In this document: one piece after another, positions 12,118 to 26,062 of the stretch
How positions within the stretch are numbered: the stretch's first letter is position 1
Layout of the letters: the number at the start of each line of letters is the position of its first letter
Sequence record: EF437941
Origin: Escherichia phage Phi1
Length of the DNA stretch: 64,000 bases
Reading direction: 5' to 3' (one strand)
Notes under the pieces: model-generated
Databases searched by the model: none
Seen by the model: only the letters and a program-made list of their open reading frames with translations
What the model was told of the DNA's origin: nothing
Position numbers and translations under genes: made by a program

Positions 12118-12146
12118 GCGGGGATAATCCCCGCCTTTTTATTTTG
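12118..12146 (+). terminator. Rho-independent terminator after gene 54
   Basis: GGCGGGGATAATCCCCGCC hairpin followed by TTTTTATTTT; lies between convergent genes. Confidence 0.7.
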
Positions 12147-12624
12147 CTAAATCATTGCAATATTTTAGTGCCTTAGTTTGAAATTCTGCGCTGTTAAGTT
12201 CTTCATAACGGTCATAATCACCGTTTAATGCTGCCTTTCTTGCTTCTTGCTCTATCTGCATGTCAGACATGATAATACAGCGATCCCGCGCTTTCATCTT
12301 CTCAAGTTGTATAGACTCTTCTTTCTGCTTGCGCAATTCTTCTTGACGCTTCTTTTCTTCTTGTGCTTTCTCTTCCCGCGCTTCTTTGATTGCATCCTTG
12401 AACATCTGCGTTTGTGGTGCTAAACCAACTTTAACGCGATCCACGTCTCGACGTTCCATTTTAGAAATAAAGCATGATTCGATCTGATCATCACTTGCAT
12501 ATGCTGCTTTACATTCACGAAGCAAGAAAACCGGATCTGATTTAGCATTCATCATAGCTTCCATGTTGGCACAACCAGTAAGCATGAATGCAGCCGCAAG
12601 ACCAATCAGTTTAATCATTTTCAT
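12139..12624 (-). CDS. Putative lipoprotein
   Basis: Signal peptide with lipobox (AAAFMLTGC), then a charged coiled-coil-like region. Confidence 0.5.
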   Translation of the reverse strand: MKMIKLIGLAAAFMLTGCANMEAMMNAKSDPVFLLRECKAAYASDDQIESCFISKMERRDVDRVKVGLAPQTQMFKDAIKEAREEKAQEEKKRQEELRKQKEESIQLEKMKARDRCIIMSDMQIEQEARKAALNGDYDRYEELNSAEFQTKALKYCNDLAK

Positions 12625-13445
12625 TTAGTCACCTCACCGAAAATTGTAAATTGTCTACGATTCTCATCGCCGAAAGATTCTACTACGTCGTTTACCTTGA
12701 CGCAAGTCCCGCGCGGTAAAATTACTTCACATTCGCAAGGGTTCCATGCAATTGACCCAACAACAAAACCTTTATGATCTTTTACGTCAATTACCCATGA
12801 TACATTACAAGAATGTTGCATCTTTCCGGTCATGGATTCATATCGATTCTCACAATAAAGGCTAGTGCTATTTGAAAGCCAGCCTCCAAAGATGATCGGT
12901 GTCATGCTGGTCGATACAAAGTTTTTAAAGGTAAACTCCTTATCTTCAATAATACGCTCTATTGTCTGAATGTCAAGATGTTGACCGCGATAAAGAGTAC
13001 CGTTTAACTTTTCGGTTTTATCCATGACACAATCCATCAAATCAACAATCTCTGATATCTCATCGGTCATGTCTTCTTCCCCTAAGAGAGCACCATTTAC
13101 CCATTCGTATTGTTCAGACACATAATCACAGATTGCATTATATTCTGCTGGGGTTATGTTGTTATGTTTGTAATGTTTGAATACATTATCTCCAAAGTCT
13201 TCGGAGTGTACTTCATACATCACATTAATGATTTTCTTGACAAATCCATAATCTTGTGTCTCACGCTCAAGGAAGCGGATAACCTTCACATAATCATCAA
13301 AGTTAATCTGATCGCTGATCATCTCAGTGATCATGTAACCATTAATCCCCTCAATGTCATATGTTTCGATGTAATTATCCATACGTTCCATCATTGATTC
13401 GCGTGATTCTTCTGAAAGACGAAAATCCTGTAATTTCTTGAACAT
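12621..13445 (-). CDS. Alt-like ADP-ribosyltransferase paralog (catalytic domain only)
   Basis: Shares YRG ... FxFKNFVSTS ... IFGGW ... ECE(V/I)LPRG motifs with the C-terminus of the adjacent alt gene. Confidence 0.6.
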   Translation of the reverse strand: MFKKLQDFRLSEESRESMMERMDNYIETYDIEGINGYMITEMISDQINFDDYVKVIRFLERETQDYGFVKKIINVMYEVHSEDFGDNVFKHYKHNNITPAEYNAICDYVSEQYEWVNGALLGEEDMTDEISEIVDLMDCVMDKTEKLNGTLYRGQHLDIQTIERIIEDKEFTFKNFVSTSMTPIIFGGWLSNSTSLYCENRYESMTGKMQHSCNVSWVIDVKDHKGFVVGSIAWNPCECEVILPRGTCVKVNDVVESFGDENRRQFTIFGEVTK

Positions 13446-13523: not shown

Positions 13524-15575
13524 TTACATTTTAAATTTATCTGGCATTGCGTCTACAGATACCAGATCAGCGATAAGCTGACGTAGAGTTGCCTTATCTG
13601 CTTTCTTACGTTCGGTTTTAGCTTCGCTAATGAAGCTGGAGAAAGACAGGTCAGAAGCAGGTTTAACAACACCTTCACGGATGAATGCATCACCGTCCGC
13701 GATCATCTCACCAGATTCTTGTAATGCTGCCAGTTCACTTTTGTTCATAATATGTGCCTCAATGTAATAAGTTTCTTGTGAATCCGTAGATGCCGTAGCA
13801 CGAGTTACCGTATCAAAGGATAACACAACACCGCGAGGAAGTAAAATCTCGCATTCTTTGTAAGCAAATGCTTTGTTACCTACTGGCAATACAGGGATGT
13901 TTTCCGCGCCAGCAATGGAGAAAGCAACATTAGCGCCACCTTCACCGCGAGATCCAGCCATAGAATCTACCCCAGCAACGGCACTAGCCACGTTTGCATT
14001 CCAGCCGCCAAAAATGTTAGGTGCAAGGGAAGTGCTCACGTAGTTTTTAAAGTAAAACGCTTTTTGCTTACGTGCAGTTTCCCACATTTGAGACCGGAAG
14101 TCCATACCACGATACAGAATAGTACCCGGATCAAGTTTAACGCCATAGTTAGAGAAGGCATTATCCAGTGCATCGCACATCTTGACCAATTCTTCTGGAT
14201 CTGCGATTCCCTCAAACTCTTCCAGCTTGCGATCAGTTAGGAAGTTGTTCATATTGATGTATGCTGCATCGGCATATTCGCTCAACACAAAACCTTCCGC
14301 GCCCGGCAGATCAAGATCAATATCTGCCATCATTTCACCCATGTTGCTAGCAATTGCTTCAAACATACCGGACGCAACATTACGAAGGGCATCGGTTTTA
14401 ATCTGGGTGATATGACTACGCAGCATTTCAGCTTTTACATCTGCTGGCATAGACTGGTCTACTCGATCCATTGCCAGGGCGGTGATCTTGTTTTCGAATA
14501 CTTCCTCGCTCATGATTTCTTTTAAGCGTTTGATTGATGCTGCGATAACTTCCGCAGACAACGGATCATATTGATCCTGAACTTTTACCAGTTCGCTTAC
14601 TGCGTATTTTGCATCGGCTTCGCTTTCAAAAATAGTACGCATGAAACCATAGCGAGTGATAATATCACTTGTCCAGTCATTCAGAGAACGGGCGGTTGAA
14701 CGTTCTAAGGCTTGACGGTCAATCAGAGTATTAAACTGTTTCTTAGGTTCTGCTTCGGTGATATCTTCTTCCGGTTTAAGATTAATTTTTTCTGGATGAT
14801 TCACATAGTCGCTGTTATAGGTCGCTTGAGTTTTCAGCATTTCTTCTTTAGTCAAACGAGATTTAGCCGCTACGCGTTGTTCCGCTTCCGCGTTTCGTTC
14901 TTCTTCTGACACAAGACTAGCCGCATATGCCTCATCTTTAGTCAGAGATTCACCAGTAGCCTTAGATACCCAGCGATCACCTAAATCACTTTCTACTTTA
15001 GTGAACAAGGATTCATCAAGTTTAATCCCTTTAATCTTATCAATCGCCATCCCGCGACGCTTGACAACAACTAAAGCGATCTTTTTGCTGGTCATTACTT
15101 CCTGCTGGAATACTTCAAACTTCGGTGTACGACGCACCAAACGCTCTATAACGCGCTTAACCAGTTCGGTCTTACCTTTCATGCGGGATACGTTAAAACG
15201 GAACATAACAGCGTCTAATTGCGCTTTACGGGCTGTTTCCATAACCACATCAAACGCACTTGCCATAACTGCAATCGGGTTATCGCCTAGACCATTTTTA
15301 AGCTGTACAATACGACCGCTTTTGTTCATTTCGCACAGTACAACATGTGCGGTCTTGTCACCCATACGAATGATTTTAGGTGTTTTGTTGGTGAAGTTAC
15401 AAAGACGGACAATCACATCTTTATCGCGTGTCTGTACTGCAAAAAGCTGTTTAGGATTCTGCTTCGGCTTTAAGCACTGTACCGGAGCAATACTGCCAAA
15501 GTTTTCTTCCTCTTCCGTCAACAGCCATTTCTCGAAAGATTCAATCATTAGATCGTCGATTTCTAAGTTAAACAT
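13524..15575 (-). CDS. alt: Alt ADP-ribosyltransferase (packaged)
   Basis: 683 aa (T4 Alt is 682 aa) with a C-terminal R-S-E type ART domain; conserved position after gene 54. Confidence 0.8.
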   Translation of the reverse strand: MFNLEIDDLMIESFEKWLLTEEEENFGSIAPVQCLKPKQNPKQLFAVQTRDKDVIVRLCNFTNKTPKIIRMGDKTAHVVLCEMNKSGRIVQLKNGLGDNPIAVMASAFDVVMETARKAQLDAVMFRFNVSRMKGKTELVKRVIERLVRRTPKFEVFQQEVMTSKKIALVVVKRRGMAIDKIKGIKLDESLFTKVESDLGDRWVSKATGESLTKDEAYAASLVSEEERNAEAEQRVAAKSRLTKEEMLKTQATYNSDYVNHPEKINLKPEEDITEAEPKKQFNTLIDRQALERSTARSLNDWTSDIITRYGFMRTIFESEADAKYAVSELVKVQDQYDPLSAEVIAASIKRLKEIMSEEVFENKITALAMDRVDQSMPADVKAEMLRSHITQIKTDALRNVASGMFEAIASNMGEMMADIDLDLPGAEGFVLSEYADAAYINMNNFLTDRKLEEFEGIADPEELVKMCDALDNAFSNYGVKLDPGTILYRGMDFRSQMWETARKQKAFYFKNYVSTSLAPNIFGGWNANVASAVAGVDSMAGSRGEGGANVAFSIAGAENIPVLPVGNKAFAYKECEILLPRGVVLSFDTVTRATASTDSQETYYIEAHIMNKSELAALQESGEMIADGDAFIREGVVKPASDLSFSSFISEAKTERKKADKATLRQLIADLVSVDAMPDKFKM

Positions 15576-23351: not shown

Positions 23352-23382
23352 ATTATAAGGGGATCACCGATCCCCTGTCAAC
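23352..23382 (-). promoter_or_regulatory. Early promoter cassette (TTGACA-N18-TATAAT) with GATC palindrome
   Basis: Spacer GGGGATCGGTGATCCCCT. Confidence 0.6.
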
Positions 23383-23393
23383 AACTTTTTGAA

Positions 23394-23870
23394 TTATTTT
23401 TCTTGATGCTCGCGCTCGTACTTTTCGAAATAAAATTCTACTGGCTGATCGTGGATTGAAAGCAAGCCAAAGCGTTTAGCCGCTCGCAATCCCATATTGC
23501 GCTGAATGTACTTCTGGAAGTTCTCGCGTATACACTTACGCCAGGATTCTAAGCCCATACAGCTTTTATAAAGATTGCATTGCACACACGCCGGATTCAT
23601 GTTATCAAGTATATCATGCTCCGGTTTATGCATTCCTACAACCTTATACTTCCACGATCCATCATCATTACGAGCAATTCGTCCATTTTCATCATAGACT
23701 ACCTTTGAGCGTCGTAATACTGGTTTGATGTGGTCTGCGTGCCAGCGATCCCCTAGTTCCTCGCCACAATAGGCACAACGTCCACCATATTTCATTTTCA
23801 GGATCTGGCGTTGCTCTTTCTTTGACAATTTTTTAGGTTTAGGGGCTTTCGCCCCTTCATTATCACACAT
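23394..23870 (-). CDS. HNH endonuclease
   Basis: CAYCG ... HADHIKP ... N ... CVQCN: HNH core with a Cys4 zinc site; start overlaps the ligase stop. Confidence 0.7.
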   Translation of the reverse strand: MCDNEGAKAPKPKKLSKKEQRQILKMKYGGRCAYCGEELGDRWHADHIKPVLRRSKVVYDENGRIARNDDGSWKYKVVGMHKPEHDILDNMNPACVQCNLYKSCMGLESWRKCIRENFQKYIQRNMGLRAAKRFGLLSIHDQPVEFYFEKYEREHQEK

Positions 23871-25365
23871 CGAATACCTCTTTTACTGTATTTGCAGTGG
23901 TCTTGTCGTAGCGAATACGTTTGATGATCGGGAGAAATAAAGAGAACTCCGGTTCATCTTCTTTACGTGATTTGCTTCGAATGTACCCGTTGCATGTCAT
24001 CTCAATGACTTTTCCGACCAGGTTATGCCGTTCAGCCCATAACATTTCTCGGTCAAGATCATTTCGACGATCGAACGGAATTACACGTTCAATACCATCA
24101 TCACATTTTTCGGTTGTGGTGTCAGTCAATCCCGATCCGGTGTTAGTCATCATTCGTCCGCACGCACTACGGACAGTAAAACCGCCCACCTTATTAGGAT
24201 CTTTACTATGCGGATATACATCAACAATTTCCGCGTCGAAGTCAATCACTTCTTTAAATTTAACCTGATCTTTACTGCGACGATCTTCAAATACACCATG
24301 TAAATTTTTAAGGATAATACCTTCTAATCCCATGTTTACATAGCGATGATATACTTCGCGAGCTTCATCGAGATTGTTAACTACGGTATTTTCGATTATC
24401 TGAACACGAGGATCGTTAAGTTCTTCAACAATCTGTTTTAGTTCCTCAAATCGATCTTTATACTGCTTCGTTGCTTTCTCGTTACCGTAGTACACATCAC
24501 GGTCGATAACATCCCAGACAGTGTAAACAATACATTGGGCTTCTTCTTTTGGAATAGTTCCTTTCAGTGATTTGTTGAGGATACCATTTCCGGTCTGACG
24601 ATCTGCAACAACGGATTCTTTCACTGCTTCCGTTACTGGCGTTAATGGCATTTCCTCTTCTTCAAATATCCATGACAGAGTACCATCATAAACGCTCTCA
24701 ACGAAGTTCTGCGCTGGTGTTTGCGAAAGGGTAGGCATATATACCAATTCGCCATCTAGAACAATTCCACGGCCTCGTAAACGCTCTAAAACCGCAAACA
24801 AATCATCAAGCCCTTGATAGGTATTACCTGAGCGGGTATAGATTGCTAATGTTTCCCCGTCAATATCAGCCATCCCACGAGCGCCATCGCTTTTAAGTTG
24901 TGCATACGCCGGATACTTGATATTAGCAATAGTCTTGTCAGAACATGACGATGCAAGGTGGCACGGCTGCTGGGGGATCAGTTTCTTCCATACCTTGTTT
25001 GCAGTGGTAGCGGAACAACCGCATTCCAGGTCACGATTCAGGACCATCATTGCAACTTTAGCATCATCCTCTGACAAGCAAGTCAGAGTATCGGTAACTA
25101 GCTGTAATGCTGCATTACCAGTTACTTGACGCGTGGCAAGTTTATTTTTAAAGACCTGTAATGCACCGGATAAAGACAATACAGACGAATAACGCGATGG
25201 TTTATCGTATTTCTTTACGCCAAACGTAACCTGTTTGCAATATGCCAGATAAAAGCATTCTTTCAGCGTTTCATTGCTCGCGGATTCTTTCAGAATCTTT
25301 TCTTTCAGCGATGTTTTGTCTGTTGCTGCAAGCTGATTAATGATATTAAGAATTGACATTTTCAC
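23863..25365 (-). CDS. 30: ATP-dependent DNA ligase gp30
   Basis: 500 aa matching T4 DNA ligase, including the adenylation motif AQLKSDGAR. Confidence 0.9.
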   Translation of the reverse strand: MKMSILNIINQLAATDKTSLKEKILKESASNETLKECFYLAYCKQVTFGVKKYDKPSRYSSVLSLSGALQVFKNKLATRQVTGNAALQLVTDTLTCLSEDDAKVAMMVLNRDLECGCSATTANKVWKKLIPQQPCHLASSCSDKTIANIKYPAYAQLKSDGARGMADIDGETLAIYTRSGNTYQGLDDLFAVLERLRGRGIVLDGELVYMPTLSQTPAQNFVESVYDGTLSWIFEEEEMPLTPVTEAVKESVVADRQTGNGILNKSLKGTIPKEEAQCIVYTVWDVIDRDVYYGNEKATKQYKDRFEELKQIVEELNDPRVQIIENTVVNNLDEAREVYHRYVNMGLEGIILKNLHGVFEDRRSKDQVKFKEVIDFDAEIVDVYPHSKDPNKVGGFTVRSACGRMMTNTGSGLTDTTTEKCDDGIERVIPFDRRNDLDREMLWAERHNLVGKVIEMTCNGYIRSKSRKEDEPEFSLFLPIIKRIRYDKTTANTVKEVFDV

Positions 25366-25825
25366 CTCGTTTTGTTAAACGTTCACGAATATCATTGAGG
25401 ATACTACAAAATTCCGATTCAGTCAATATAGTCTTTAACGGATCAGTTCCACCTATACTATGACGCAATTTCTTATTTCCGGTAGCGAGTAATGCTTTAC
25501 AAAATTCTGGGTTATTCCGTGCCATCGTAACAAATGCCAGATGTACCAGTCTGTAATAATGCTCACTCATTCGATGAATCGGGCGACCCTGAAAATATAA
25601 CATGTGATTCTCTATCTTTTCGGTCCTTCCGGTTCTTTTTGCTTTGCCACCGTGCATCAAAAAGATTTCTCTTTGTCTCTGAGGGTTCTTAAATCTTAGC
25701 CCCTGTAAAAATCCTTCTGTGCTGTTAATATCGCAACCAAATAGACGGAATGGTCTTTTATTGAAATTACTCAATTCACCCGATGGATAAGGTCCACCCG
25801 CATAGATATCAATTTCAGAAGTCAT
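25346..25825 (-). CDS. NADAR (YbiA-like) domain protein, tentative
   Basis: 159 aa with SNF ... LLATG-like blocks reminiscent of NADAR domains; sits where T4 has the 30.x genes. Confidence 0.35.
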   Translation of the reverse strand: MTSEIDIYAGGPYPSGELSNFNKRPFRLFGCDINSTEGFLQGLRFKNPQRQREIFLMHGGKAKRTGRTEKIENHMLYFQGRPIHRMSEHYYRLVHLAFVTMARNNPEFCKALLATGNKKLRHSIGGTDPLKTILTESEFCSILNDIRERLTKRGENVNS

Positions 25826-26062
25826 TGAAACTAATCTCGCTAATCAGAGAGAACGGATCATAATCGTCACTAGGAATATCGATAGTAATCGAGTGAGGGT
25901 TTACCCATACACCAAACTGGTCTTCTTCGGTGAATACTTCGGTATGGATTTCGTGGATGTTTACATTCATAGTTTTCATAATAAAATTCCTTAATAATCA
26001 ATAACTTACAAAATCATATAGCCAAAATATAGGCGGGATTATTACCCGCCGTTTAAAAATCA

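Follow-up and report, generated by a model that had tools for sequence, protein, structure and literature searches.

Gene 30.3 of the Krischvirus phage Phi1 as a probable orthologue of the T4 anti-DarT NADAR AdfN

The question raised by this locus is whether the small protein encoded next to the DNA ligase gene of Escherichia phage Phi1 (record EF437941) is a NADAR enzyme and, if so, which ADP-ribose linkage it would act on and against what. In an earlier sequence-only reading of the window, namely, the whole stretch of 64,000 nucleotides that was analysed, the product was described as showing NADAR-like blocks, with an assignment that was called weak.

Gene 30.3 and its neighbours in the Phi1 window

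The features around the gene are as follows.

25346..25825, minus strand: gene 30.3 (putative adfN orthologue), 159-aa single-domain phage NADAR, with key residues E37, R44 and H122 and C-terminal helix 136–155
23863..25359 or 25365, minus strand: gene 30, ATP-dependent DNA ligase of 498 or 500 aa (Pfam DNA_ligase_A_M, E = 4.7e-22; RB49 and GEC-3S annotation)
25815..25979, minus strand: gene 31.-1, a 54-aa ORF named from the RB49 annotation (gp31.-1)
26032..26050, minus strand: GC-rich hairpin with a T run behind it, resembling a terminator, from a consensus scan, between gene 31 and gene 31.-1, with a terminator annotated at the corresponding site of GEC-3S

Gene 30.3 runs from ATG to stop over 159 codons on the minus strand, which the earlier reading had not given, and its product is 100% identical to the protein entered as gp30.3 for phage RB49 (AJ550428), as seen from tblastn and the RB49 annotation. 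The RB49 gene has carried the name 30.3 since that entry, for two decades. The window is that of an RB49-like Krischvirus, with 97.6–98.0% identity over 4.5 kb to MIZ4, GEC-3S and RB49 by megablast, and the genes around 30.3 follow the wider T4 order (31, cd, pseT, rnlA).

The location beside DNA ligase that had been claimed before is borne out, with the ligase ORF directly downstream of 30.3. The ligase has two in-frame candidate starts, a GTG at 25365 and an ATG at 25359; with the latter, which is the one annotated in RB49, the two genes share 14 nt. Directly upstream, gene 31.-1, for which no Pfam match was obtained, overlaps the start of 30.3 by 11 nt. The overlap between 30.3 and the ligase gene suggests co-transcription of the two genes and makes translational coupling probable. 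The hairpin at 26032..26050, a predicted terminator, would form the upstream edge of a block composed of 31.-1, 30.3, 30 and an HNH ORF.

The HNH ORF just mentioned (23394..23870, minus strand, 158 aa; Pfam HNH, E = 5e-6) shares 8 nt with the 3' end of the ligase gene and resembles a free-standing endonuclease of the homing type that was inserted behind gene 30. After it there is a perfect sigma-70 consensus promoter at 23381..23352 (TTGACA, 18 nt spacer, TATAAT). Inside 30.3, the mechanical ORF listing also gives a 52-aa antisense ORF (25534..25692, plus strand), which was taken as a chance ORF.

The 159-aa ORF itself is not a chance one, because it is found widely: tblastn gave gp30.3 homologues in 1508 phage records, with at least 80% of the query covered in 1500 of them, and an exhaustive HMMER scan for the gp30.3 family gave 973 cluster representatives at E ≤ 1e-3. 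By tblastn, 58 Krischvirus records keep the protein at 95–100% identity.

It is also observed that, outside the T4-like phages, many gp30.3-family domains are fused to other domains (metagenomic relatives P0019–P0120), the partners being NT5C 5'-nucleotidase, thymidine kinase, ASCH, histidine phosphatase, metallophosphoesterase, ATP-grasp (D-Ala-D-Ala-ligase-like) and DUF6939. Some metagenomic relatives carry tandem copies, with the second copy having lost the catalytic Glu in P0069 and P0117. In Klebsiella phage Roth16 (PQ657790.1, 66941..67387) the region that matches as a 30.3 homologue is annotated as 'anti-CBASS protein acb1', which is probably a misannotated phage NADAR.

Membership of the NADAR superfamily

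In the Pfam scan, the 159-aa protein scores 132.5 bits (cut-off 36; E = 1.2e-38) with PF08010 Phage_30_3 ('Bacteriophage protein GP30.3'), over profile positions 2–138 of 138, and in PHROGs it matches phrog_652 (E = 2.5e-45), to which no function is assigned there. The same scan places it below the gathering score of the generic NADAR profile PF08719 (15.5 bits against 35.1, E = 0.021), and the NCBIfam NADAR anti-phage model gives 13.8 bits against a cut-off of 240. The generic model fails because the gp30.3 clade has a separate sister profile in Pfam, PF08010. The search with a NADAR profile that the sequence-only reading had put forward as a check is thus answered in two parts: the generic profile does not pick up the protein, whereas its sister profile does so strongly. 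When 109 family members were scanned singly, PF08010 was found in all 109, and Pfam NADAR was found at E ≤ 1e-3 in 14 of them, with the best value being 1.2e-6. Moreover, an hhalign comparison of a 12-sequence family alignment with E. coli YbiA gave a probability of 90.7% and E = 1.3e-6, aligning residues 5–151 with 17–156.

The fold points in the same direction. The AlphaFold2 model of the 159-aa protein is very confident (pLDDT 94.2, pTM 0.89), and in a Foldseek search against the PDB only YbiA (2b3w, E = 2.5e-6) and the ADP-ribose-bound Phytophthora NADAR (8bau, E = 1e-3) were matched with probability 1.00, the remaining PDB matches being noise (E > 3). The five-helix core with two small flanking beta-hairpins that characterises the YbiA fold is present. 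What was found is therefore a NADAR fold, and not what had been named beforehand as a refutation, a protein that lacks a NADAR match and clearly belongs to some other fold.

Sequence searches of the PDB were less telling. The family profile built from 12 homologues returned YbiA alone, at a non-significant E = 0.12. The single-sequence search had as its top match DltA (D-alanine carrier-protein ligase, 7vhv, E = 3.8e-4), and a weak DltA match was present in NCBIfam too. DltA was rejected because the match is a local low-similarity stretch that is unreproduced by the family profile and contradicted by the fold search.

From the fold search, the profile–profile comparison and the bridging members, we conclude that the gp30.3 protein belongs to the NADAR superfamily. 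The blocks that had been noticed before are real, with LSNF, SxEGxLQxxK/R, GxxAK and LxHSxG being near-invariant motifs of the gp30.3 family, and the assignment that had been put down as weak is now well-founded.

Active-site residues and the proposed role

The gp30.3 proteins have been named as the 'phage NADAR' family (Schuller et al., PMC11125620), and the mechanism in T4 was demonstrated in 2024–25. In vitro, ADP-ribose on guanine is hydrolysed by T4 gp30.3, whereas that on thymine is not (PMC11125620, Toxins 2024). In a paper from 2026, the T4 phage NADAR appears in the list of G-ADPr-removing enzymes but not in that of C-ADPr-removing ones (PMC12945103). Johannesman et al. (Nat Commun 2025, PMC11825919) renamed T4 30.3 adfN (anti-DarT factor NADAR) and showed that it is needed for T4 resistance to DarTG1, that ectopic AdfN is sufficient to rescue RB69, that E36A and K43A weaken AdfN and that the purified protein strips ADP-ribose from DarT1-modified DNA. 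In RB69, a natural 15-residue C-terminal truncation leads to loss of a helix required for full activity (PMC11825919). T4 AdfN does not bind DarT1, is unable to serve as an antitoxin in uninfected cells and is fully active only during T-even infection (PMC11825919). The G-ADPr DNA glycohydrolase activity and DarTG1 rescue have been demonstrated only for T4 AdfN and the NADARs of Bas32 and Bas60, and Bas46 and Bas47 are described as relatives of RB69, not Krischviruses (PMC11825919). In the literature we found no challenge by DarTG or DarTG1 of RB49, of an RB49-like phage or of any Krischvirus.

By BLASTP, the Phi1 protein aligns with T4 gp30.3 (from NC_000866) at 38% identity (E = 2e-30), residues 3–150 against 2–152, up to the last residue of T4. 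E37 aligns with the catalytic E36 of T4, which corresponds to E43 of PnNADAR and E88 of EcC7, and the position is Glu in 162 of the 168 family domains. H122 lies in LRHSIG, beside the predicted strand 119–121; the position is His in 161 of the 168, and in the hhalign comparison it aligns with the Glu of 'LVE' in YbiA. It is noted that the last-strand residue differs by clade, being His in phage NADARs, Glu in the YbiA type and Asp in the DarG1 type (PMC11125620, PMC11543638). In the AlphaFold2 model the predicted C-terminal helix 136–155 is present, and then a 9-residue low-confidence tail. The position of the phosphate-binding Lys (K43 in T4, K50 in PnNADAR, K95 in EcC7) is occupied by R44; of the 168 family domains, 151 have Lys in this column, 11 have Arg and 4 have something else.

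We propose, with a probability of about 0.8, that the ORF is the Krischvirus orthologue of T4 gp30.3/AdfN, a stand-alone NADAR that would remove DarT1-made guanine ADP-ribose from phage DNA. For Phi1 the proposal is based on homology, fold, the conserved residues and the C-terminal helix, with the activity and the counter-defence role being carried over from T4. According to the proposal, expression of 30.3 from the block of 31.-1, 30.3 and ligase would come ahead of DNA replication or coincide with it. The protein would bind the ADP-ribose that DarT1-type host toxins put on guanine N2 in phage DNA, with E37 and H122 positioning the distal ribose and R44 coordinating the diphosphate, and would hydrolyse the N-glycosidic bond of the guanine-linked ADP-ribose. 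Replicable DNA would be restored in this way and the phage would escape DarTG1 abortive infection. Points that weigh against the proposal are the sub-threshold score with the generic NADAR profile, the E = 0.12 for YbiA in the profile search of PDB sequences, the Arg at position 44, the lack of a DarTG1 challenge of an RB49-like phage in the literature found and an identity of only 38% to T4 AdfN. Moreover, since T4 AdfN is fully active only during T-even infection, a Krischvirus protein could rely on its phage background in another way. Judging by the T4 gene order, the adfA region (gene 61.2 homologue) probably lies outside the window.

The residue R44 gives rise to a different expectation, which we consider unlikely, that the protein is a genuine phage NADAR attenuated or re-tuned by the Arg, being active in vitro and protecting poorly against DarT1 in vivo, or preferring another ADP-ribosylated substrate, for instance G-ADPr in RNA or what a different toxin makes. 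R44 replaces the Lys that prevails in the family, and the corresponding K95R variant of the E. coli C7 NADAR keeps G-ADPr hydrolysis in vitro and loses cell rescue from DarT1 (PMC11543638); in addition, NADAR families vary in in vivo efficacy and base range (PMC11125620, PMC12945103). Against this expectation stands the distribution of Arg within the family. The 11 Arg-bearing domains are just 30–60% identical to each other and keep the Glu and the His, except in two tandem proteins, where the second domain is degenerate. Because these domains are scattered and most have a closer relative bearing Lys, the Lys-to-Arg change arose several times, and the sequences suggest that at R44 it may be regarded as a tolerated, functional variant. 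Moreover, the other active-site motifs are intact in the R44 protein, which is highly conserved across the 58 Krischvirus records. There is only a small chance, on our estimate, that the RB49-type AdfN is naturally re-tuned in substrate, toxin target or phage-context dependence, or that RB49-like phages are sensitive to DarTG1 despite an intact adfN.

Two further genes of the window are of interest as context. The sequence-only reading had placed 30.3 in the same genome as two ADP-ribosyltransferases, and both of them match Pfam PF03496.

12621..13445, minus strand: 274-aa ADP-ribosyltransferase, the second ART (PF03496 ADPrib_exo_Tox, E = 4.3e-16; 'ADP-ribosyltransferase' in GEC-3S)
13524..15575, minus strand: 683-aa Alt-like ADP-ribosyltransferase (PF03496, E = 2.3e-09; alt in GEC-3S)

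From gene context, Iyer et al. (PMC9503650) proposed that such proteins process soluble ADP-ribose derivatives (immune signals, NAD breakdown products) or reverse or edit the ADP-ribosylation made by the phage's own ARTs, here Alt and the second ART. The presence of the two ART genes on the same strand as 30.3, 10–13 kb from it, and the inability of T4 AdfN to act as an antitoxin in uninfected cells are in line with this being the main role. The gene-context proposal, however, predates the experiments in which T4 AdfN acts on ADP-ribosylated DNA and, during T-even infection, is both required and enough for resistance to DarTG1. The ART genes are neither adjacent to 30.3 nor in its gene block, and the target of Alt-type ARTs is protein arginine, whose linkage to ADP-ribose does not figure among the NADAR substrates in the literature found. 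We therefore regard this role as improbable. A functional link of the ARTs with 30.3 finds no support in the gene organisation, since the distance between them is occupied, in the GEC-3S annotation, by about 25 small ORFs and several predicted promoters and terminators. Directly downstream of the 274-aa ART ORF, and overlapping it by 4 nt, is a 161-aa ORF (12139..12624, minus strand) with no Pfam match, which could be a partner or modulator of the second ART.

Coming back to the probable AdfN orthologue, the reading adds little to the function itself, since the counter-DarTG1 role of T4 AdfN is established biochemically and genetically. The gain is in annotation: RB49-like records, including the GEC-3S RefSeq, say 'hypothetical protein' and can be relabelled as AdfN-like NADAR. 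Besides, the Arg that occurs naturally in place of the phosphate-binding Lys poses a small, testable question on in vivo efficacy.

Comparison with known NADARs

Among the characterised proteins, E. coli YbiA (2b3w) and Phytophthora PnNADAR (8bau) share the fold, but they have a last-strand Glu where the phage protein has His, and the sequence identity in the structural alignments is only 18–22%. YbiA is tied to riboflavin intermediates and swarming, and the YbiA-type and general NADARs also remove C-ADPr, an activity not credited to the T4 phage NADAR in the 2026 list (PMC12945103). The shared fold could be read as that of a YbiA-type N-glycosidase of riboflavin-pathway intermediates, with a metabolic rather than a defensive role. 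This we consider very improbable, as the Glu that distinguishes YbiA is replaced by the His that is the signature of the phage clade, the identity to YbiA is as low as just given, and riboflavin genes are absent nearby in the GEC-3S annotation.

The DarG1 NADARs (E. coli C7 and Geobacter/Trichlorobacter lovleyi; PDB 8bat) have a last-strand Asp and an electropositive channel formed by N-terminal extensions, and their genes lie beside DarT1. By contrast, the phage protein has His in place of Asp and no extension, its 159 aa making up the core domain only, and, with 31.-1 and the DNA ligase gene as its neighbours, it is an orphan that has no toxin gene beside it. In our analysis the gp30.3 protein would work like DarG1 but is no member of DarG1.

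The closest known system is T4 gp30.3/AdfN. Here the phage is a Krischvirus and the function of 30.3 is read from sequence and model. Genes 30.1 and 30.2 of T4 are absent, and therefore 30.3 abuts the ligase gene. The T4 internal out-of-frame ORF 30.3' (L001, 7403..7630) is not conserved, there being no same-strand ORF of at least 40 aa inside the RB49-type 30.3. The replacement of K43 by R44 is the sole departure among the mapped features, and the low-confidence C-terminal tail of 9 residues is found here in addition. Otherwise the two proteins have in common PF08010, alignment from end to end, a size corresponding to the core NADAR domain only and the same three PDB structural matches, as well as the neighbourhood (ligase, gene 31, cd, pseT), the catalytic Glu, the clade-specific His and the C-terminal helix.
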